From: Eledone cirrhosa
Lineage: Eukaryota
Direction: 5' to 3'
DNA: 64,000 nt
NCBI GenBank assembly: GCA_964016885.1
Contig: OZ024740.1
Span: 24,304,001 to 24,368,000, forward strand
Part shown: positions 122 to 64,000 of the stretch, piece by piece
Layout: every line of letters starts with the position of its first letter
How positions within the stretch are numbered: the stretch's first letter is position 1
Notes under the pieces: generated by a model
Seen by the model: only the letters and a program-made list of their open reading frames with translations
The model's database searches: none
Told to the model about the DNA's origin: nothing
Position numbers and translations under genes: made by a program

Positions 122-424
122 CAATAATATTCATAATTGGAAACTATCTTTATAAAACCATATTTATTATATTATATATATTTCAATGGGTACCAATATT
201 TTGGTACGCTATCGTCAAATAAAATACAATAATTGGTTTACAGATAATGACATATCTACATATGAACTTAATGTTATGAGTTCAGATGTCGATATGTCAT
301 GATCTGTAAAACAATTATTGTATTTTATCTGACGATAGCGTACCAAAATATAAGTACCCTTGAAATATATATAATAAAATAAATATAGTTTTAAAAAGAG
401 AGTATCCATTTATTAATATTATTG
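122..424. repeat. Fold-back (inverted repeat) element, arms ~122-245 and ~302-424, each carrying an HHR motif
   Basis: The arms are reverse complements (e.g. aattggtttacagat / atctgtaaaacaatt). The tail 'aaataaatatggttttataaa..tagtttccattt' recurs at ~29581 and ~60297. Confidence 0.8.
322..380 (+). ncRNA. Type-I hammerhead ribozyme motif
   Basis: attttat-CTGACGA-tagcgtac..gtaccctt-GAAA-tatata-TA-ataaaat, with a perfect 7-bp stem I. The inverted copy at 166-225 has C3>T. Confidence 0.75.
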
Positions 425-7375: not shown

Positions 7376-7407
<32 letters not shown>

Positions 7408-7534
7408 ATCTGTGTGTGTGTGTTTGTGTAAAAGGTAAACAGAAATAAGCACAGAATCGGTACAGTGTATGGAAGGAACATATTAGGTTAACGCTTGAAA
7501 TAGCAGGAAGAGGGTCTTAACGTTTCGGACGCGA

Positions 7535-7962
7535 TATATATATATGTGTGCATGTATGTATATATATACATACTACTGTACGTCTGTATACATATATGTA
7601 TGTACGTATACATACTTACATTTAAGTAACAGCCGTACTAAGAGTGTGAAATGAAATTTCGTTTCATTCGTTTCCATTTATCGTTTTCGGTGCGCCCGGC
7701 CGACTAACTCACAGTATGCAAATTAGGCTGCTCAGCCGTTAATATGCATAAGGAAAGTATATACTTTCAGACGTTCAATCATCTGGCAGAAAGGTATTCG
7801 ATGCTGACGATAGCTAATAAGCTTGAAACTAGTACAGCGTTCCTGTGTCAGTGTTGAACAAAAGGGCGACGATGGTTGCCGAGCACTGTACGGCTTAATT
7901 CGGGCTGTCTGTTTGTTTACAAACAAACCGAATATTATAATAATTGTTCGGTAAACCCATAC

Positions 7963-8055
<93 letters not shown>

Positions 8056-8130
8056 TAAGTATGTATACGTACATACATATATGTGTACAGACGCACAGTA
8101 GTATGTATATATATACATACATGCACACAT
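7535..8130 (+). mobile_element. Non-coding HHR-bearing element (~430-nt unit, 7535-7966) plus inverted partial copy (8054-8130)
   Basis: Near-identical reverse copy at ~45140-45525 and a partial copy at 46235-46312. Contains the HHR at 7799-7839. Confidence 0.8.
7799..7839 (+). ncRNA. Minimal type-I hammerhead ribozyme
   Basis: cgatg-CTGACGA-t agct aata agct t-GAAA-ctag-TA-cagcg, with palindromic stem III (actagt). Confidence 0.8.
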
Positions 8131-8152
8131 ATATATATATGAGTTTATTGAC

Positions 8153-8246
<94 letters not shown>

Positions 8247-8756
8247 AGAGGTCAATAAACTCATTGCCGTTTACCACGGGGAAACATGAAGTGTACGTAA
8301 TCGGTTGACAGGACGCCAGAAATACCAGCCAAAAACAATATTTTGTTATTTTGGACAATCTGAAGATGTGTATTCGGATAATATATATGCTATGAATAAA
8401 AATCCTTGATTGGGTTACGACTTTCTCGGAAGACATGATAAATATCCCGACATGATAGAAACCAATCTAGCAGAACCTCTATCAATAGAGTGCTTTTTTT
8501 ATCGGTCTCTGAAAGAGATAGATGGAAATATATCCTATAATGGAATGTGTCACCAGCGAATTATAACACCGTGAAAAGGAACATATAGTGTTCGGAATGT
8601 TCTATGTAAAATATATCAATGGTACAACGTTCGGACTACTTGACTAGACGCTAGATGAGATCCCAGCCATCGGTGGTAATATACGATATCTTGTAAGAAG
8701 CAACGGGAATTTCCACATCATCAAATAATAATATACATAATAATATACATACTAAA

Positions 8757-9789: not shown

Positions 9790-12700
9790 AAAAACATCTG
9801 GGTCTCGCAACACAGATGGTACATTTGGACCCGGAGGGTCGACTAGTGGTTCTGGACCTTGGCAGTGGTAAAGGCGGAGCGTTTAGGTTGGTAGCCACCT
9901 ACGTCCCTTTCGGGTCAATGCGGCCGGACTTCTTCCATCGTCTGGAGACTTTTCTAGGGACGTCTAGCTCCTTGCTATTAGTGGGGGACTGGAATGGTAT
10001 CCTAGATGCACGCTGGGACTACGTAGGGGCCTGCCCCGATAGAGAGGGGTGTAATAGCCTCAAAGGGTTAATCGGTCGATTTGACCTGGCCGATAGATAT
10101 CGACTAGATTTTCCGACTGCGCCAACTTGGACTTGGGCAAATCGTAGCGGATCATCTAGGTCGTACCTAGATAGGTTCTTAGTTAGAATTAAGGATAAGG
10201 ACTTTTTAAGTTGTCCAAAAATGCGCATGGTTGGCTATTCAGACCACAAATTAGTGACCTGCATGGTCAACCTTGACAGAACTCATAGACAGGGACCCGG
10301 TTACTGGAAGCTCAACTTGTCCTTACCGGCAAGTAAGGCTTACAGGAACCGGATTAGCACTTTAGTTAAGGAGCGGATGACGGGCGCCATCGTCAACAGC
10401 AGGTGGTGGGGATCTCTCAAAAGAGAGATTAGAGTAGTCTCTATAGAATTTAGTAAGGAGTTAGCTTCAAATAGAAATAGGAAGGAAAGGGAGTTGGTAG
10501 ATAGTGTAGAAGAGGCAATTAGAAGCGGCGACGTGGTCAGAGTGCTAGCTAGAGAACGGCCCTGGGCCAGTTCTTCGACGCGAAACACGAAGGCTGCATC
10601 GTCCGAAGCAAAATACGTGATCTGGGAAACGAGGGGACCAAAGCTGTTAGCTAGGCCCGCGTGACAGAAGCCAAAAGAGGGAGCAGATCCACTATCCGGT
10701 CTTTGCGAGACCAGGATGGACGGGTGATCCTTAAACCTAAGCAGATGTGCGAGGCTTTTCAAAAGCACTTTGCCGGATTGTTCGGAACGGGCGGGGGGCC
10801 GGTTGGGGACGTGGACTTCGGTCCATACCTCGACGGCCTGTCGCGTCTCTCGGACAGGGAGGCGAAGTCCTGCGAGGAGCCGATTTCAGCCGCTGAGATA
10901 GAGGACGTGCTGAGCCAATGCGGCAAACGCAAATCCCCGGGTCTCGATGGTCATCCATACGAACTATATCTAGCTATGACGGACTTGTTCCCCGAACTCC
11001 TCGAGGCGGTCTACTGCAACTGGCAACAGAACGGGAGAATTCCCTGTGCTGTGACCAAGGACGTAGTCATGCTAGTGAGGAAGGACGAGAATAAGGGGGA
11101 CGATATAAATAATTTCAGGCCCATAACTCTGCTAAATACAGAGTTACAGATTTTGGCCAAGGTGCTAGCAAAGAGGTTGGCGCTTGTCGTGGGCAACCTG
11201 GTGGGAGATGCGCAGACATGTGCTATCCCGTCCAGGTCCATCCACGATAACCTCCACCTCATGCGATACATCATAGAGAGGGTTGGCAACGAACCCGGCT
11301 TTGGTGGGGCCCTGATCAACTTGGATCAATCTAAGGCATTCGATAGGGTCGACCATGGTTACCTGGATGCGGTGCTAGCGGCGGCAGGCTTCGGACCCGT
11401 TTTCAGGGGCTGGATCAATGCCATGCACAGCAGCCGCATCTGCTCTAGGGTCAAGGTGAACGGCTACCTCTCGGAGCCGTTCGAAATCGCCCTCTCTCCT
11501 CCCTTCTGTATGTAATGACTCTAGAGCCACTGCTGCGGAAGTTGGAGTTGTTGCAGGGCATCCCGTTGGAACCGGGATTGCGGAAAGCGGTGTCAGCCTA
11601 CGCCGATGACGTAACAGTAATGGTGTCGACGGCCTCGGAAATCAGGGCGATCGGCACCTTACTGGAGGAGTACGAAAGGTTTACAGGGGCTAAGCTGAAC
11701 CGGGACAAGTCGATCGGTCTGCAACTCGGCACGTGGAGGGGCAGATCGATGCCCTCTGATGGCGTCGTCGGGCGCTGGACGGAGGGACCGGTGAAGTTGC
11801 TCGGGGTCTGGTTCGGACCAGACCTCCAGGTGGAGACGAACTGGGGTGAGGTGACGAACAGGGTGTTTGCACTGACCCAGAAGTGGGCCGAGTGCAAACT
11901 GTCCCTGAAAGGACGGGCGGAGGTGGCGAACACTTATATAGCGTCCGTCATCTACTACCGCCTGACCGTTGTGCCTTGCCCAAGGGAAACGCTCGCCAAA
12001 ATGGAGCGCGCACTCTTCCAATTCCTTTGGAAGAAGCGGGCTCCTATGGTGAGGAGATCCATCTGCTGTCAACACCCTTCGAAAGGAGGGCTGGGGGTGC
12101 CGTGGCTAATGATACGTAAACACGCATTAAGGCTACGGCACCTTCAGGTATTCCTCTCCGGTCAACCGGTGTGGGCCCCGTTTGTGAGGCGAGCCTTTCC
12201 CAGACTCGTCTCACTCACCGAGCTGCAATCCTGGGTCAAGCAAAGACCGAGAAAACTGGGCGTCTGGCAAACCAAGTGTGCCCAGGCACTCACGGCTCTC
12301 TGGCAGGCGGACCCGGCTGTCAGTGGAGAATCCACCTCGTCATTCTATAGAGGGCTGGTGGTTAGCAGGTGCGACGACGCCCTCGGAGAAACCCTAGGCA
12401 TGGAGGAAGACGAACTGGCCAACCTGTTCGGTAGGACATTCAGCCCGGGACCCATGGATAACTTCCAGAGGTCCCTGGCCTGGCAATGCTACAGAAGGGC
12501 TCTGCCCGTTCGAGAAAGGCTCTACAGACACGGGCGCCCGGGTAGGGACCCATCGAAAAAGATCTGTCCCAGATGCGTGTGCGACGAGGAAACCGTTGCA
12601 CACGCATTGGTACACTGCTCGGGCATTGCCGATCTGTGGGGTTATGTCGAACAACTGCTGTCAAGGGTGGGACCAATCCGGTTGACCACCGTGTCTATTG

Positions 12701-13243
12701 TAACGATCAAGCCGCCTCCCCACTTCAAAAACGAAGGAGAGGCGGTGTTTCTGTGCGTAATAGCCATGGCGAAAGAGGTTGTATGGTGGACGCGTCTGAA
12801 AGGACTGAGGTCAGATACCTTTCTCTCTGGCCAACAACTGGTCCGTTTCTTCCGATATCATTTCGGAAGAAGGATCAGGATGGAGAGAGAGGTGCTGCAC
12901 CCCAGCCGTTTCTATGAAAGATGGGTGAAAGTGGCGAGAATGGCCCGTGTGAATGGGCCTTCACTCTACATCAGACTATAGGTGAGGAAGATGAAAGACC
13001 AAGGGAGCACACCTTCTCTGTGTTCCTGAGGAGAAGTGTTGCACACTTTTTTCGGGGGTGTGTGCGACCCCCCAAGGCGCCTCCTCTCTATTGAGGACTT
13101 TGTTATAAATTTTATTTTTTGTTATATTTTATTTTATTTTTATATATTGTTATTGCCTCCTCCTTATTGAGGACGCCTTGTTTTGTAAACTCCCCCATTG
13201 TACTTGTCCCACTTTTGATGCCCTGGTGGCAAATAAAAGAAAC
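9790..13243 (+). mobile_element. 5'-truncated Tx1/L1-clade LINE (ORF2 + 3' UTR)
   Basis: GC-rich block flanked by (TATC)n. Encodes an APE-RT-zinc knuckle polyprotein. The 3' UTR ends tggcaaataaaagaaa. Confidence 0.92.
9816..12981 (+). pseudogene. Disrupted LINE ORF2: AP endonuclease, reverse transcriptase, CCHC knuckle (pieces 9816-10664, 10661-11515, 11515-12981)
   Basis: APE motifs GDWN, YLDRF, SDHK and GPGYWKLN. RT motifs KSPGLDG, NFRPITLLN, LDQSKAFDRVDH and YADD. Knuckle CPRC..ETVAHALVHC. Frameshift near 10560; the 'RQGC' motif is deleted near 11490. Confidence 0.92.
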
Positions 13244-15185: not shown

Positions 15186-15892
15186 TTATATTTTATGACA
15201 ATTATATTGGGGTGATAACCCGTTTAGTTTTGGTTTAAATTTGTTAAGGAATAGATTTTCTTTGTTTATTCTTTGTTGCTGTGTGAACGAATCCGAGCAC
15301 TTGTAGAAGGGGAAGATTTTAAAGTTGGGTAGTGTCATTCCTGCGCAGTTCGCAATATGGCTGCTCAAGGGGATTTTTCTTGTGCTAGCATCACGGATTT
15401 GTTGGCGGTGGATGGTCATTCTTTTGCGTAATGAGGTGCCCGTCTGTCCTATGTAGTTGTGTTTGCACCCACCGAAAGTTATTGCGTAAATCAAGTTCTC
15501 CGAGTTGCAGGTGAAATTGTTTTTTACTGTAAATGTTTGGCCATCTTTAAATGTAAATGTTTGTCCTTCAGTGAGGTAGAGGCACGTTCCACAGTTTGTT
15601 CTACCACATTTGGTAACTGTAGGGTTGAGGATTGGTTTGGGTATATTTGGTCCAGTGAGAATGCGTTTTAGTGATTTGGGTTGTCTTTTACTTTTAAGGA
15701 TCTTGTGTGTTTCAAGAATAGACTTCATTTTTACATCTCTAAGTAGGATGGGGAGGTTTTTGTGTAGGTGATCAAACATTTCGGTATTTCTGGGGTTGAA
15801 AGTGGATACATATGGCAGGGTGTTGAGTGTGGTTTTCTGTTTTGGATTGTTAAGTTGATGCGGATTTAGGTGTTTTGCCCTGTCTATTCCAT
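15186..15892 (-). pseudogene. PLE C-terminus: Cys-rich linker + GIY-YIG endonuclease
   Basis: KCGRTNCGTC..NFTCNSENLIYAI...CKHNYIGQT...LRKRMTIHR..RINKENLF..KFKPKLN. Confidence 0.88.
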
Positions 15893-16117
15893 ATATATAT
15901 AACAAGGAAAGTGTGGTAACGAACCATGTGGAATATAAGGCACCAGGGTACTCGACACTTAGGGTAGTAGTGTGGGTAATAAAAAAGAGTCAGGACCTCG
16001 TTGGCTGGGCTCCGGCCGTTTCGACAACTAGATCCGAACTAAATCAGATACTACAGGTTTAGTTAGGATCTAGCTGTCGAAACGCCTGACCTCGGCCGCC
16101 GGGTTCCTGACTCTTTT

Positions 16118-16673: not shown

Positions 16674-18357
16674 ATACTTTGGGAGGGTCATGTTGCCAAT
16701 AAGAAACACACGCACCAGTTGCTTTCACTTCAATTTATTATAATAAATTTATAAATTTAGGAATTTATAAATTTCTGGTTGGTTGGTTCCACAACCAGAT
16801 AGTTGTTTATATATTGTCAAAGTTCTTTCGTCACACATTCTGTGACCTCTTCAGTGACTGGGGATTCTTTTCTTTGTGTTTGTGCCTCTCCTTTGTTCTG
16901 TCCTACGCCATTTTGTTTCTGTGTGTGTGTTGTGTGCTCAGTCTGCGCATGCGCCACATCCGCGTGTCTGTGTGTGTTTATATTCGTTTATTTATTTGTT
17001 TATTTATATGTTACCGGTTGGATGTTTGTTCTATGTGCGTGTGTGTTTTCATTTTGTCCTTAATTTTAAGTTGTGATGTTGCTGTTCCACTCATATTTTC
17101 TATTTAATTTTGGTTGTAATTCTTTTATGTTTATTGCCTCTGTGATTTGTCTAAACATTGCGTCTTTTCTGTGTGTATATTCTATTTTTATTTCTATGTT
17201 CTCTAATGTACCCTTATGTTCTATTTTAGCATGTTGGTAGCGTGCAGATGATCCTTTACTATCTTGAAGGTCTCGCCAGTGTTCATTTATCCATTCCCCT
17301 ACACTACGAGCTGTCTCATCTATGTACACTATATTTTTCTCTCTACATTGTCCTTCAGTACATCTTATGCTATATACTACATTTCTAGTTTTACAGTTAA
17401 TATGGGGGCTTATTTTACAGGTTATACATTTCTTATCTATAAAGGGGGGTCATTGAAAAGGGTATGTCTTGCTAATAAGTGTTTTTACGGAGGTACCTGG
17501 TCTTTTTACTATCTTAATATTGAGTTTATATTTATCTAGGGCCCTTCTAAATTTGTAAGCTAATTCACCTCTAGGGGTAGTATCGATGAACATTACACTC
17601 TGGTATTTATTGCTATCATACCATGAGTTTATTCTATTAGCCTTATTCCTAGTTCTTTCTATTCTATTCCAAAATTTGCTCCTATACAAGGGGCAGGTCC
17701 CATTTATGTCATTATTCACCATTTTTTCCCATTTGGTTCTGGCTCCTCTATACACTCTGATTTTATCTCTCTGATTGTAACCAGAGAACTGCATACGGTG
17801 GATGAAGTGTTGTATGTGTCTCTCTAATTCTTCGGGGTTGCACATGCGGGACACGTTTCTCATCACCCGTACCAAATCCGCAATCAGTATGTTGATTTTG
17901 GTATGGTCCGAAACAGCTGAGTTTCTGTGGATCAGATGTTTGGAAGTCATGGGTTTGGCATAATGGGAATGGAGGATTTGTTTTTGTTATTAATGGTATC
18001 TAACCAGAACTCTGTGTCTAGTACAGGTAATCGATGGTTGGGGTGTTTACTTGGGTAGTCTATAGTAACTCTAATACTCTGGTGGATGGAGGTATGTCTT
18101 GCTAATAAGTGTTTTTACGGAGGTACCTGGTCTTTCTACTATCTTAATATTGAGTTTATGCTTATCTAGGGCCCTTCTAAATTTGTAAGCTAATTCACCT
18201 CTAGGGGTTGTATCGATGAACATTACACTCTGGTATTTATTGCTATCATACCATGAGTTTATTCTATTAGCCTTATTCTTAGTTCTTTCTATTCTATTCC
18301 AAAATAGACTACCCAAGTAAACACCCAACCATCGATTACCTGTACTAGACACAGAGC
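16669..18357 (-). mobile_element. 5'-truncated, rearranged Penelope-like element (RT end, thumb, GIY-YIG, 3' pLTR with HHR)
   Basis: Reading frame ~18070-17066: DYPSKHPNHRLPVLD..YAKPMTS..MQFSGY..CITC..CKTRNVVYSIRC..YIDETARS..RQITEA..LNRKYEW. There is an internal duplication (18090-18304) and an inversion (18304-18357). The 3' end gtataacaa abuts (TA)n. Confidence 0.85.
16816..16858 (-). ncRNA. Minimal hammerhead ribozyme in PLE 3' pLTR
   Basis: Minus strand: gtca-CTGAAGA-g gtcac agaatgt gtgac-GAAA-gaac-TT-tgac. Confidence 0.75.
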
Positions 18358-22819: not shown

Positions 22820-22900
<81 letters not shown>

Positions 22901-22958
22901 CGTAAAATAGGTAAATGTTAAAAAATTTTAAAATATTAACTTACTTACTAAAATTTTC

Positions 22959-23039
22959 ACTCCAACTAATTAGTTTCTGCAATGGGATAAAGACAGTTAC
23001 GTAATAAACTGTCGGGAATTCATTGCGTCATCAGGGAGT
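22959..23039 (-). ncRNA. Type-I hammerhead ribozyme
   Basis: Reverse complement of 23821-23901. Confidence 0.8.
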
Positions 23040-23820
23040 CTATTCTCAGCTGAGTCTCCAGGCAATGCGCGGACACTGGGGACCCATATAAAAATAATAA
23101 TAATTCGGTAGATGGAACAGCTAGCGGGGACTGGATTCCATGTACTGAAAAGCTCGCTGTCACTGGTCAAATGGCAGATTCTAAAGAATCAATCACGTGA
23201 CACTGAGGCTAGTCGGTAGGAGTGGGATGGTAAGATGACAGAAGCCTACCAGCACACCAATAAATTAGTAGTGGTTTTGGCAGGTTTGCTCAACAAATAA
23301 GTAATTTGGAGATAAATATAGAGAATTTAGTATATCTACTAACATATGCGTACAGATGTACGCTAATGCTAGCAAATACACTGGTTATGTCATAGTACCT
23401 AGGTGGTTCAATGCAGGAGGATGCAGAACAATAATATAAAAGACGTAAAATAAGAAAATTTTAAAAAATTTTTAAAAATTAACTTACTTACTAATAGCGT
23501 ACATCTGTACGCATATGTTAGTAGATATACTAAATTCTCTATATTTATCTCCAAATTACTTATTTGTTGAGCAAACCTGCCAAAACCACTACTAATTTAT
23601 TGGTGTGCTAGTAGGCTTCTGTCATCTTACCATCCCACTCCTACCGACTAGCATCAGTGTCACGTGATTGATTCTTTAGAATCTGCCATTTGACCAGTGA
23701 CAGCGAGCTTTTCAGTACATGGAATCCAGTCCCCGCTAGCTGTTCCATCTACCGAATTATTATTATTTTTATATGGGTCCCCATTGTCCGCGCATTGCCT
23801 GGAGACTCAGCTGAGAATAG

Positions 23821-23901
23821 ACTCCCTGATGACGCAATGAATTCTCGACAGTTTATTACGTAACTGTCTTTATCCCATTGCAGAAACTAATTAGTTGGAG
23901 T
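23821..23901 (+). ncRNA. Type-I hammerhead ribozyme
   Basis: actcc-CTGATGA-cgcaatg..cattgca-GAAA-ctaattag-TT-ggagt, with palindromic stem III. Confidence 0.82.
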
Positions 23902-24074
23902 GAAAATTTTAATAAGTTAATTTTTTAAAATTTTTTAAAATTTTCTTATTTTACGTCTTTTATATTATTGTTCTGCATCCTCCTGCATTGAACCACCTAG
24001 GTACTATGACGTAACCTGTGTATTTGCTAGCATTAGCGTACATCTGTACGCATATGTTAGTAGATATACTAAAT

Positions 24075-24114
<40 letters not shown>

Positions 24115-44992: not shown

Positions 44993-45139
44993 TATATTGT
45001 ATTGATTTTTATACATTAAATTTTGCTCTGATACTTACATAGAGCACTCTTCACTTCTATGACCTTTTCTGTTTTCAACGGAAATTTCAATACTTATATA
45101 TATAGAAAAGAATGAAATGAAATCTCATTTCTCACTCTT

Positions 45140-45525
45140 TCGGCAACCATCGTCGCCCTCTTGTTCAACACTGACAAAGGAACGCTGTACTAGTTTCAAG
45201 CTTATTAGCTATCGTCAGCAATGTATACCTTCCTGCCAGATGATTGAACGTCTGAAAGCATATACTTTTCTTATGCATATTAACGGCTGAGCAGCCTAAT
45301 TTGCATATCGAGTGAGTTAGTCGGCCGGGCGTACCGAAAACGATAAATGGAATAGAATGAAACGAAATTTCATTTCTCACTCTTAGTACGGCTGTTACTT
45401 AAATGTAAGTATGTATACGTACATACATATATGTATACAGACGTACAGTAGTAGGTATATATATATACATACATGCACACATATATATATGTACATATGG
45501 GTTTACCGAACTTTTATTATAATGT
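45140..45525 (-). mobile_element. Second copy of the ~430-nt HHR element, circularly permuted relative to 7535-7966
   Basis: Reverse complement of 7535-7880, preceded (on the minus strand) by the segment found at the end of the 7535 copy. Confidence 0.8.
45183..45223 (-). ncRNA. Minimal type-I hammerhead ribozyme
   Basis: Minus strand: cattg-CTGACGA-tagctaataagctt-GAAA-ctag-TA-cagcg. The core is identical to 7804-7839. Confidence 0.8.
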
Positions 45526-45569
45526 ATAGTTTATTATAATGTATAATTTATTATAATGTATTATTACGG

Positions 45570-46200
45570 GGGATTGTCAGTATCGGTAGATGGTCGGACG
45601 CCATGCTTTGCACCAAAGAGTTATAGCCCTTTATAGTATGAGTTCAAATCTTACCGAGGTTAACTTTGCCTTTCATCCTTACGGGGTCGATAAAATAAAG
45701 TACCAGTAATACACTGAATAATTGCTGGCCATGTGCCAAAAGCAGAAACAATTATTATAAATTATTATTATTTAAGGGCGGTGGATTGGCAGTATCGCTA
45801 GAGGGTCGGACGCCAAGCTTTGATGCATAGCGTTACGGCCCTTGCCATTCTGAGTTCAAATTCCGCCGAGGTTAACTTTGCCTTTTATCCTTCCAGGGTC
45901 GATAAAATAAAGTACCAGTAATGAACTGGGTAATTGCTGGCCTTGTGTCAAAAGTAGAAACAATTATTATTTATTATAATGTATTATTATAAATTATTAT
46001 TATTTATAATAATACATTATAAAAAATAATCGGTAGAGAGTCGGACGCCATGCTTTCCAGCATAGTTACGTCCCATTACGGTCTGAGTTCAAATCCCGCC
46101 GAGGTTAACTTTGCCTTTCATCCTTACGGGGTCGATAAAATAATGTACCAGTAATGTACTGGGTATTTGATGGCCTTGTGCCAAAAGTAGAAACAATTAT
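45570..46200 (+). mobile_element. Three head-to-tail SINE copies separated by (TTA)-rich spacers
   Basis: Units at ~45570-45755, 45776-45965 and 46030-46200, each ending agaaacaattat. Confidence 0.85.
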
Positions 46201-46309
46201 TATTTATTATAATATATAATTTATTATAACATTTATTGTAATAAATGTTCGGTAAACCCATACGTACATATATATATATATATATGTGCATGCATATATA
46301 TATACATAC

Positions 46310-46357
<48 letters not shown>

Positions 46358-50145: not shown

Positions 50146-50514
50146 GTTCTTTCTCGCTCTCTCTCTCTATCTGTCCCTCTCTCTCTAACACACACATACA
50201 CCTCTCTCTCACTCTCTCTATATATATATATATATATAGGTGGACCATAACGCACCAGAGTACTCAATACATAGGGTAGTAGAGTGGGAAATAGGAAAAA
50301 GTATGACCCCGACGGCAGAGCTCAAGCCGATTCGACGGCTATTTCAGACCAGAAATAGCCGTCGAAACGGCTTGAGCTCTGCCGTCGGGGTCATACTTTT
50401 TCCTATATATATATTTGTATATATACATATATATATATATATGTGAAACTAATATTAACATTTGTACTGCCTCTTCGCTTTCACGTTGTTTTTTTTGTTA
50501 TTTCTTTACTGTCT

Positions 50515-51427
<913 letters not shown>

Positions 51428-53235: not shown

Positions 53236-53243
53236 ATATAGAA

Positions 53244-53343
53244 GAGATTCTACAGGACTAGAACTGTTTCATTCGTGAGAAATCATCGGGAATCTCTGAT
53301 GATTTCTCGCGGATGAAACAGTTCTAGTCCTGTAGAATATCTC
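53244..53343. repeat. ~100-bp near-perfect palindrome with a partial HHR-like core (CTGATGA..GAAAC at 53296-53319)
   Basis: ttctacaggactagaactgtttca.. / ..tgaaacagttctagtcctgtagaa. Confidence 0.75.
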
Positions 53344-53425
53344 CTCTATTAAAACCTTTATACTCTGCTATGTATTGAGTACCTTACTTACTGTGGTTAC
53401 CTCCGATTCAACCCCCGGAATAACT

Positions 53426-58619: not shown

Positions 58620-59532
58620 CAAACATGTTAAATTTAGCTTCGTTTATTATAAATTCTCTGCTATATATATTTCAGTGACAGCTATTATTGACTATGACCT
58701 CATCTGGCAGTACGAATTATTGTAGAAAAAACAGGTAAACATGGTGTTGAAATGTGTTCCACTCTGTCACTTCATCGATATGTCCAGCTCCTGGGTGTGT
58801 TGTTAGTCCTCCGACGAACTGGAATCATATGAGCTAGAACAAACAAATTTCACTTCCTTAACCAGAACTCAAGTTAGCTGACACTAGATGATATAAAGAG
58901 ACAAAGTACGTCTGCGGAGTCCTATCCTGTGTGCAAACAGGCACCCCAAGTTTCCGACCAGCGAGCCTCAACACCCAACCCCGGCTTGTGATCCGAGTAC
59001 CCGGAGGATATCCTACCTCGAACCCGACCCCATTCGCACGCATGAGTCAGTGATAAATAGGACGCGCCTATTACAACTACTTACCGCTCTACCCACCTCT
59101 AGAGGTGACTTTTGACCCTGGGTCTGTGTGTGTGTATCCACACGTGGGCGTATATGGAATTGTGTGTATGTGTGCTTGGTAATATGGGAATGTTCCTGAG
59201 CCTGTGTTGGTACGTCTGTACATGCAATGGTGTGCGTTGACAAACATATACGCATATGTACTCTATGCTTAACAAATAAGTGTAGTCCTTTACACTTCTG
59301 GTGTTTGACACAGGTTTTTCGGTTTTTTATTTTTTACTTCACTTTTACTTCATTTGTTTTTAAAAGGCACCCATCTTTTGTTGGACTGTGTGGACGTAAA
59401 TAGGTGAATGCACCCGAGCTATTTTTTCTACAATAATTCGTACTGCCTGATGAGGTCACAGCCAATAATAGCTGCCACTGAAATACATATAGCTGAGAAT
59501 TTATAATAAACGAAGCCAAATTTAACATGTTT
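58620..59532. repeat. Fold-back element, arms ~58620-58731 / 59421-59532, with an HHR in each arm (58652-58718 -, 59435-59501 +)
   Basis: aattcgtactgc-CTGATGA-ggtcacagc..gctgccact-GAAA-tacata-TA-gc(t/a)gagaatt. The left copy has CAGATGA. Confidence 0.75.
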
Positions 59533-59631: not shown

Positions 59632-60236
59632 GAGGTTATATTTAATTTGTTGGGATTTAACAAGCTTAAAATATTTTATATCTGATATAAAGCACTCAAC
59701 AAATTAGTGGAGTAAAAACACAATATATTCCTCAAACACCAATATTCATGAATGAGACACATATCCACAATGTGTGAAAAAAATGACCCTATGCCTAGTT
59801 TAAAAATTCTTAGGTCTATAAGCAAAATCTGAGACAAAATTAATTCGAATGGATGAGACATAATATATTTTAAATATATCATCTTTCTTTCTTTTTCTCC
59901 TCTACACTGGACGTGATTTATGTGTCGGCTATTTTAACTGTATCCCTTCCCTCCTTAACCTCTCACTTGTACGCTGATCATCTGTCCTCAAGCTGCCTAC
60001 TATTTTTTCACTTCCTCAATATATTTCTCTCTCCCATATCTCCTTCTCTCTCTGTCTCGCTCTGTTGTTTTTCTTTACATACATCTCTTCATCTTCTTCT
60101 TTTTATCTTCGTTTTTATTCGTCTTTCTTTCTCTATAACTGTCCTTAACAGTTTCACTACCAAATCAACTTTTTAAATGGAAGTTGCATTATTCTAAGGT
60201 ATGTCAAAATTATTTATAAAACAGCTTATATATTGT

Positions 60237-60300
60237 ATTTTGTCTGAGGAAGGCATACCATATTTTTAATATGATATCCCAGAAATATATATAACGAAAT
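60237..60300 (+). ncRNA. Type-I hammerhead ribozyme motif
   Basis: attttgt-CTGAGGA-..catat ttttaat atg..-GAAA-tatata-TA-acgaaat. It has the same downstream tail as the 322-380 family. Confidence 0.7.
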
Positions 60301-61026
60301 AAATATGGTTTTATAAATATAGTTTCCATTTGTTTAATATCGTAAACCTACTCCAAAAACTGTTGAGTGCTTTTATATCAGTTATAAAATATTTACTCGT
60401 TGTACCCCAACAATTTAAATAAAACTTTTGCATATATATATATATATATATATATATTCTTAATAGTAATAACGAGGCATAGTACATGGAAGAAATATAT
60501 TGAAACACTGGAAATGGTTGGAAGAGAGACTTGACGTTTTGGATGGTGTTCCTTCATCCGAAGATAGAGCTAAATAGATTGTAAAAAGTGAACAGAAGAA
60601 TGAACGGGGAAAATGAGAACAAAAATTTGGGAGAAAAAAACACACGTGAGAATTTAGTCAGTTATCTTGGATATATATATATTGTTGAGTGTGTGGATTT
60701 CGCAGGCGATTCCTCAAAGCAAACTAACTGAATGGTGTGTGTCGTCTCTGAATCAATTCTATTCTCTGCCTATGTTTACCGTAATCCAGTAATTGTTTAC
60801 TTAGACTTTGTAATTTAAACCTGATGACGTCGCCAGACGTCTTAAGTCAGAGAAAGAGAGACAGAGAGAGAGAGAGTGGGGAGAGAGAAAGAGTGAGTGG
60901 GTCTGCGGTGATGAGACCGAAGAGACCATAAAACATGCGAGTACTTGATATATGGAGAGATGCAGGGTGGGTATCGAAATATGGAAAATACCGACTGCTT
61001 CGTGCCGCGGTCAGGATTTTACATAA

Positions 61027-62477: not shown

Positions 62478-64000
62478 GAAAATGATTCCGTTAGTAGGAA
62501 TATTTTTGAATGAAGATATTTTCCTTACTTATTCGTATCTGTTCTGTTGTATTGTCAGCGCAAACGTGTGATAAGGTTTATTTAGTTCGAGTTTTTATTT
62601 TCTAAAGTAGCAGGTCTTATGTGTGTGTGTATGTGTCTGTTTGGATGGTTAGCATGCTATTGTGTTGACATAATGTATATTAAACCATATTTAATGTTGG
62701 TCTATATTTTTGAATAAACATATGTTCCTTATTTATTCGTATTTGTTCTGTTGTATTGTCAGCGCAAAGGTAAAATGGGAAGACTTGGAATGTGGGTGTC
62801 TTATTACTTGCGCGTATGTCTACATGTGCGCTTATTGTTATCTGTCTCGTGGTTGGATCTCGTATTTGTTGGCGATAAACTGTCATTCTGTTTCTGAGTG
62901 TGAGTTTAGTTTGTCCTATATAATCTTCATTGCGTCCTTTACATTTAATGGCATAAAATAAATTTTTTGATGAGCAAGTGAAGTGATTTTTTACAGCAAA
63001 ATTTTATCCTGATTTAAATGTATACGTGTTGCCTTCAATGAGGTGTGTGCAGGTTCCACAATTAGAGCGACCACATTTTTTGACAGTTGGTTGTTGGTTT
63101 GTGGTAGGTAATTTGGCATTGGTGAGTAATGTTTTCAGTGATTGCTTTAGCCCTTTCTATTCCATTATTTATTAGTAATGGTGGGTACTCTCTTTCGAGT
63201 AGAATTTCCCTTAATTCTTGAAGTCTTTTATTTCGCGTTTCATAATTAGAGACAATTGTGCAAATTCTTCTTGCTAGGTTAAAAGGAATGTTCATCTTCG
63301 TGTGCTTTGGATGGTTGGAGGTGAATAGCAGGTATTGTTTGGAATCTGTTGGTTTGTAGTGTATGTCAGTTTTAATATTTGTGTCTTTTTTTAAGATTAA
63401 GATGTCCAGAAATGGGCGTTGATCTTGGTTGTATTCCATTGTGATTTGGATGTGGTTATTGATGGCGTTTATTAAGTTTTTGAAATCCTTCAGTTGGTCG
63501 AGTGTGTGGGATCATGGTATGAGACAATCATGCAAGTAGCGTTTCCAATTCTCTGATGAATATTTGTGGAAATTCACTCCGTATTTTGATTTGTACTGTT
63601 CATATATCTAGATTTCTAAGTATCCCATGAATAAGTTGTCATAAGTTGGAGCGGATTTTGTACCCATCGCTGTCCCCGATATTTGCTTGTAAGTACTGCC
63701 ATCAAAATCAAAAAAGTTGTTCTGTAAGATGAATTTTAATCGCTCGGTGATGAAGCTTTTTTCTATGCTGCCAGGTATCTCATTGGGATATTTCTCTAGC
63801 CAGAATCCTGTTGCTTCTAGTCCGTATTGGTGTGGGATCGTTGTGTAGAGATTCACTACATCGAAAGACACAATAATAGTGTCGTTGTTGACATGTTTGG
63901 GGAGGTGGTTTAAGAGGTCCAGATCGTCTCTTACAAGGCTTGGTATGTGTTTGAGAATTGGTTTTAGTAATATGTCTATAAGGTTGCTCAGTATGTGTGT

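Follow-up and report, generated by a model that had tools for sequence, protein, structure and literature searches.

The window, a 64-kb stretch of AT-rich animal DNA that is full of TA, CA and related microsatellites, contains three pieces of a ribozyme-carrying repeat unit of ~430 nt (copies 1 to 3, Table 1). The unit, whose length comes to 431 nt if the (AT)5 spacer in copy 2 is included, is non-coding and has a GC content of 38%; its longest ATG frame (78 codons) runs antisense and starts inside a TA run, no sense open reading frame (ORF) of at least 40 codons was found in copy 1, and a search for a tRNA gene found none. Three blocks, termed A, B and C, make up the unit. Copy 1 reads A-B-C (7534-7966) and is followed, after (TA)n, by an inverted A (8055-8139), the minus strand reads C-A-B at 45523-45140, with A-B 94.6% alike over 351 nt, and C runs into A again at 46235-46312, as an earlier reading made from the DNA letters (the sequence-only reading) had described. 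That description did not include the further piece of B with which copy 2 ends. Copy ends sit in (TA)n, and no target-site duplication is discernible.

Table 1. Pieces of the ~430-nt repeat unit and adjoining or related elements, in window positions; PLE, Penelope-like element.
Feature	Position	Strand	Details
Neighbour outside the ~430-nt family: 3' half of a different hammerhead repeat	7377-7533	-	Has a sister at 28936-29088; broken off within helix II at the start of copy 1
Copy 1, block A	7534-7620 (end approximate)	+	(AT)6 at 7534-7545, then AC/TA-rich stem-loop block; predicted hairpin 7537-7600
Copy 1, block B, holds the hammerhead	7621-7932	+	Closed by predicted 8-bp helix 7631-7638/7888-7895, pair probability ~0.6
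Type I hammerhead	7798-7840	+	Core 7804-7834, CUGACGA at 7804, GAAA; predicted cut after GUA at 7834
Copy 1, block C	7933-7966	+	In and 3' of predicted AT-rich-loop hairpin 7927-7952, pair probability 0.95
(AT)15-GTGTATG-(TA)n microsatellite	7967-8054	+	Perhaps the decayed beginning of another A, which would make a weak third C-A junction
Inverted copy of A (unit 7535-7619)	8055-8139	-	85 nt, 97.6% alike; on the ribozyme strand, tail-to-tail with copy 1
Second B piece (unit 7640-7681), end of copy 2	45098-45139	-	42 nt, 85.7%, E 2e-10; followed by short (TA)n
Copy 2, blocks A-B (unit 7536-7882)	45140-45490	-	94.6% over 351 nt, E 1e-158; hammerhead core 45218-45188
Copy 2, block C (unit 7934-7968)	45489-45523	-	91.4% over 35 nt
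Three tandem SINE-like copies with TTATTATAAT-rich spacers	45524-46233 (SINE-like copies 45567-46221)	+	Between copies 2 and 3
Copy 3: C, then first part of A, then (TA)n	46234-46312 (end approximate)	+	C 46234-46269, 94.4% over 36 nt; head-to-head with copy 2
Broken PLE-like ORF fragments	15186-15989; 17066-17986; 41780-43114; 62690-64000	-; -; +; -	

Other hammerhead-bearing repeats share the window. A non-coding family with a unit of ~531 nt, measured by the direct repeat 50781/51312, occupies 22881-24080 and 50606-51400; its helix II is long (z -3.5 for the fold of 23815-23905), its inverted arms stand head-to-head and end in (TA)n, and it is probably the first family of the sequence-only reading. 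A third hammerhead-bearing repeat occurs at 28922-28949 (+) and at 7377-7533 (-), where the missing half of the latter is absent beyond copy 1. Further hammerhead-like cores with a long helix II lie at 329-365 (+), inside a palindrome at 119-427, with relatives at 59447, 27548, 57809 and 60197-60380; the core at 329 has the first 11 letters of core plus helix II in common with the ~430-nt family. A 13-mer shared between the ~430-nt family and the other permuted family was looked for and had no exact match, and blastn of the specific part of the ~430-nt unit against the other hammerhead families and the four PLE fragments of the window found no likeness.

Among the PLE-like fragments, a Pfam GIY-YIG match covers 15189-15989, and the fragment 15186-15989 has a CX4CX2C linker, within the Neptune-linked CX2-5CxxC motif. 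The other three fragments had no Pfam match; we take them to be PLEs from their motifs, and the PLE clade labels used here are likewise our assumption. A hammerhead-like motif (16854-16826, minus strand) lies ~210 nt 3' of the PLE-like ORF end at 17066, in the sense of the ORF, and is followed by (TA)n. Elsewhere, the window contains a GC-rich LINE-like element in three frames (9792-12981, plus strand; Pfam endonuclease, RVT_1 (reverse transcriptase) and zf-RVT), a strongly skewed 15-nt minisatellite with ~420 copies and long open frames on both strands (32068-38400), and short near-perfect palindromes (8139-8264, 2354-2470, 50291-50406 and 53236-53349), some of them (TA)n-centred and one abutting the inverted A.

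The hammerhead motif of block B has the CUGANGA and GAAA boxes, a UH cut site and helices I-III in type I order. Helix II (7811-7824) has four positions, made of a U.U base and three pairs, under a 6-nt loop; the canonical G10.1-C11.1 pair at its base is absent from both copies, each having U.U. Helix III is the palindrome ACUAGU and forms 1 bp, with a predicted self-duplex of -6.8 kcal/mol. Read by hand, helix I pairs at 4 of 6 positions in copy 1, with damage that differs between the two copies, and in a loose end from the public sequencing run X4 its 5' arm ACGTTG pairs with the 3' arm at 6 of 6. In canonical animal hammerheads, helix I has 6 bp and helix II 4 bp, and helix III is short, palindromic and dependent on a dimer (PMC4209133); the predicted geometry here matches that type.

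A hammerhead descriptor, written after the motif had been seen, matched twice in the window (7804+ and 45218-), both times in the ~430-nt family, and gave no match in the reversed window or in any of 60 block shuffles; by this post hoc descriptor, the motif is beyond chance. Narrow Rfam scans of both copies returned no hammerhead family at E≤10, and no hammerhead appeared among the 150 of 163 whole-window Rfam matches listed, which were microsatellite-driven. The ribozyme motif pattern had no match in metagenome, viral and genome contigs. A pattern for block C had one metagenome match, two viral matches and no genome match; we reject all three as chance, since the likeness is limited to 18-21 nt of the pattern.

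The 36-nt hammerhead core that the sequence-only reading gave as identical in both copies is so (7803-7838 equals 45219-45184). The identical run in fact extends to 43 nt, a length to be expected: the copies differ at 19 of 317 columns, and a run of at least 43 nt arises in 81% of random placements (P = 0.81). We thus rejected core identity as a sign of selection, the more so as a longer identical run, of 76 nt, sits in A/B. Among the differences listed within 7622-7972 when public runs were placed on the stretch, 1 of 33 falls in 7802-7844, at the free N7 position.

The circular fold predicted for the unit reaches -130.4 kcal/mol (z -5.7 versus 40 shuffles), and B+C alone gives z -3.6. The minus strand folds almost equally (z -5.3), so the fold does not name the strand. 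In this model the end of C pairs with A (7602-7609/7959-7966). Locally, the hammerhead fold is no better than shuffles (z -0.7 and -0.35). The lowest-energy local fold of both copies traps the core CUG with the 3' arm of helix I (probability 0.96 in copy 1); as predicted, the monomer would thus take an inactive fold. In run X21, a subfamily has changes at 7630-7631 and 7888-7895 that would keep the long helix paired (A-U to U-A), on arms too distant for a single read to connect them.

Copy 1 and its inverted A could at first sight be taken for a miniature inverted-repeat DNA transposon spanning 7534-8139, with A as its terminal inverted repeat and a captured ribozyme fragment between. The near-identity of the 85-nt inverted ends (97.6%), each bounded by (AT)n, is what such an element would show. 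Against it, A is internal in copies 2 and 3, with C outside, and the two sides of copy 1 do not fit together again, as the missing part of the cut neighbour was not found next to it; we consider this explanation very improbable. The motif that starts A follows 4 of the 328 (AT)4+ runs of the window, and all four are pieces of the ~430-nt family. Downstream of C in copy 1, the microsatellite contains a GTGTATG-containing 12-mer that follows 1 of the 162 (AT)8+ runs of the window, GTG following 15 of 162, and a third, decayed C-A junction at this place is weakly suggested.

The sequence-only reading had counted the C-A junction twice, at copies 2 and 3. Both junctions are present, and they face away from each other around the tandem copies at 45567-46221, which we take to be SINEs and read as later inserts at the centre of one inverted insertion. 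The two arms are 78% alike over 139 nt, microsatellite included, and are probably not independent, since both begin at the same hairpin (unit 7933/7934, within the predicted hairpin 7927-7952). The two junctions are therefore probably the two arms of one inverted fold-back insertion, later split by the three SINEs, and the C-A junction counts once, not twice. On the ribozyme strand the geometry of the inverted arms is opposite at the two loci, head-to-head at 45-46 kb and tail-to-tail at 7.5-8.1 kb. Two arms of the family stop in A ~43 nt apart (near 7576 and 7619), in a tail-like manner and as a single case each.

Copy 2 further jumps from unit ~7884 to 7640, two points that adjoin one predicted helix (7631-7638/7888-7895). 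This fits a reverse-transcriptase jump or a PLE tail, for neither of which a circle is necessary. The resulting 42-nt repeat of B was considered as proof of a circle and rejected, as a jump on a linear molecule or a tandem tail explains it equally. The same holds for the earlier claim that the C-A junction closes the unit into a circle: the permuted order stands in the DNA, but an uncleaved tandem transcript gives the same template with C upstream of A.

A linear A-B-C element that targets (TA)n would explain C-(AT)n-A by neighbouring landings or by DNA fold-back at (TA)n, with neither a circular nor a tandem RNA template. The junction is indeed an (AT)n run, of 5, 9 and perhaps 15 units, and such runs seem to be the target as well. 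Copy 1 and its inverted A share the (AT)6 at which they start, (TA)n-centred palindromes are common in the window, and the clear junction counts as one event. Copy 2, however, would then need an upstream copy reduced to 35 nt of C and joined by just 5 AT units; the C end is predicted to pair with A, and the repeated unit 7640-7681 of copy 2 marks a jump between points adjoining one predicted helix. These features make a linear element quite unlikely in our judgement.

We turned to public sequencing runs for the abundance of the repeat. Part of the stretch is contained in 20 runs from 16 studies, with at least half of it in three. Placement on 7425-7972 covered 4 of 23 listed runs, two of which come from the 17 of 20 that share less than half of the words. 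In run X1, which may be near the source of the window, 12,243 of 17,142,217 contigs were placed, mostly 90-99% alike, and in X21 49,117 of 12,467,656 reads (0.39%); X5 and X4, from other organisms, gave 9 and 21 contigs. These counts include the neighbouring repeat 7425-7532 and are not copy numbers; they point to a large dispersed family with subfamilies. Among the 15 of 27 joints listed, eight change strand and five touch 7935-7949, from a RAD library to which chimeras may contribute; block A (7533-7621) was skipped as a repeat during placement, and C-A joints are invisible to the run counts. Apparent element ends at 7655, 7721 and 7900, with piles of loose ends at 7658-7659, were rejected as RAD restriction-site artefacts because they coincide with three of the four AATT sites of the stretch.

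In all four runs depth is continuous across B and C and keeps the same order of magnitude, and single contigs span B-C at 7804-7964 and 7805-7957 in X4 and at 7715-7939 in X5. This continuity bears on the possibility that an autonomous PLE left these pieces as truncated pseudo-LTRs (pLTRs), with C brought before A by a chance partial-tandem integration. PLE pLTRs do carry type I hammerheads and most PLE copies are 5'-truncated (PMC4209133, PMC8557442), inverted arms are typical of PLEs, the hammerhead-like motif 3' of the PLE-like ORF (16854-16826) shows that such elements exist in this genome, and Xenopus retrozymes are described as close to pLTRs in a 2026 preprint (10.64898/2026.07.22.740005). 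Yet in these copies an ORF would not fit at any of the three junctions (A-B in copies 1 and 2, C-A in copies 2 and 3, B-C in copy 1), the depth is comparable across B and C, helix II is short and canonical, unlike the long one of schistosome PLE ribozymes (PMC4209133), and blastn with the specific part of the unit found nothing in any of the four PLE fragment regions of the window. The sequence-only reading had itself allowed that the unit might always be the pLTR of an autonomous PLE; all three pieces in the window lack an adjoining PLE ORF, and we regard a pLTR origin as unlikely.

The sequence-only reading also proposed an independent, retrozyme-like family. A distinct sequence family of ~430 nt is supported by its non-coding nature, 38% GC, predicted structure, type I hammerhead, junctions without an ORF and lack of blastn likeness, but its mobility is not independent, since it must borrow PLE protein. 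Most likely the repeat is just a passenger of Penelope-like retrotransposons. We consider it likely that the copies are dispersed offspring of a non-autonomous, Penelope-mobilised, retrozyme-like element that was inserted in (TA)n from a template with C upstream of A. Each copy in the window has a single ribozyme and hence cannot release a monomer, and no head-to-tail tandem with two ribozymes occurs within the 64-kb window. Since the predicted cut site is crossed intact in both long copies, their template was either circular, an uncut tandem transcript or read with a jump; between circle and uncut tandem transcript we see about even chances, and a circle is plausible.

PLE insertions include partial tandems, inverted truncated arms, optional tails of 30-40 bp and a microsatellite bias, which is tied in Neptune elements to the CX2-5CxxC linker (PMC8557442). 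AT-rich DNA is nicked by the PLE protein, which begins reverse transcription inside the RNA, at two sites of an AC-rich stem-loop, with unprocessed RNA as the dominant substrate in vitro (PMC11167929). The insertion features of this type present here are inverted arms at both loci, the 42-nt repeat and (TA)n at the outer ends. On this model, master loci elsewhere would consist of transcribed head-to-tail repeats, in which two ribozymes could join at the palindromic helix III and release a monomer, perhaps to be circularised. A borrowed PLE protein with GIY-YIG endonuclease and reverse transcriptase, presumably from a Neptune-type partner to judge from the (TA)n bias, would nick AT-rich DNA. 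Reverse transcription starting inside the RNA would yield copies whose two ends vary in their place within the unit, in permuted order, and stalling with fold-back at the C hairpin could have produced the head-to-head pair at 45-46 kb, split afterwards by SINEs.

A more specific reading holds that the family, very high in copy number and mostly dispersed, is copied from circular RNA, with the copies recording starts, jumps and fold-backs of PLE reverse transcriptase on a folded circle, and with a slipped helix I that keeps the ribozyme closed in the monomer, so that it opens only in dimers. Its marks would be the starts ~43 nt apart in the A stem-loop, the jump across 7631-7638/7888-7895 and the fold-back at the C hairpin. 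We hold this reading to be rather unlikely; if it is true, thousands of breakpoints would decide between circular and tandem-linear Penelope-type templates. What the family offers is a small non-coding passenger, very abundant, with permuted and inverted copies that can be placed on a predicted RNA fold; it bears on the question of which template serves PLE-type copying, a circle or an uncut tandem transcript.

Non-LTR retrozymes of animals have been described by Cervera and de la Peña in 2020 (PMC7229834) and by Li, Clavereau and Pollet in 2026 (10.64898/2026.07.22.740005); both argue that they depend on PLEs, and the preprint treats them as non-autonomous PLE derivatives. In the cephalopod and octopus literature searched, with subscription journals and repeat databases outside its scope, we found no retrozyme or hammerhead family of this sort. 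The repeat landscape of the window resembles that of an octopus; if the host is one, the family would be new to those papers. The word 'ribozyme' does not occur in the text or in one supplement of a 2026 paper on Octopus vulgaris repeats (PMC13282606), whose repeat library may hold the sequence under another label.

Animal non-LTR retrozymes resemble the unit in being a few hundred bases long, non-coding and low in GC, below 45-50%, with a canonical type I hammerhead and PLEs alongside. Where they have target-site duplications, these exceed 4 bp. Their dispersed monomers are described as the offspring of tandem masters, with units of 350-390 bp in mussels; the unit here, at ~430 nt, is slightly above the 170-400 nt circles of 2020 and within the 51-972 bp range of 2026. 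It differs from them in the single ribozyme per copy in the window, the strong (TA)n context and the inverted arms. By the rule of the preprint, which asks for two consecutive ribozyme units, neither long copy is an active retrozyme, and both fit its dispersed monomers (10.64898/2026.07.22.740005). The closest descriptions of the ribozyme come from the axolotl (PMC7229834), where HHR_Amex1 has a one-pair helix III with a palindromic tetraloop and HHR_Amex2 tolerates U.U at the base of helix II; both axolotl ribozymes cleave better as dimers. Compared by description, the motif here joins the weak features of the two, a one-pair helix III and U.U.

The mode of insertion is close to that of the endonuclease-bearing Neptune and Poseidon PLEs, with which the family shares a hammerhead, partial tandems, inverted truncated arms, an optional 30-40 bp tail and AT-rich or (TA)n targets (PMC8557442, PMC11167929, PMC4209133). 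Those elements start reverse transcription internally in an AC-rich stem-loop, and block A is an AC/TA-rich stem-loop; unlike them, the unit here has no ORF. Non-autonomous Chlamys PLEs such as MRC1 are likewise non-coding PLE derivatives, theirs with pLTRs and head-to-tail copies (PMC8557442). Chlamys elements of green algae, most of them described as lacking a canonical hammerhead, prefer (CA)n or (C)n and in this differ from the unit here (PMC8557442). The kind of element is thus already known, and this family is a further one, retrozyme-like rather than a proven member.
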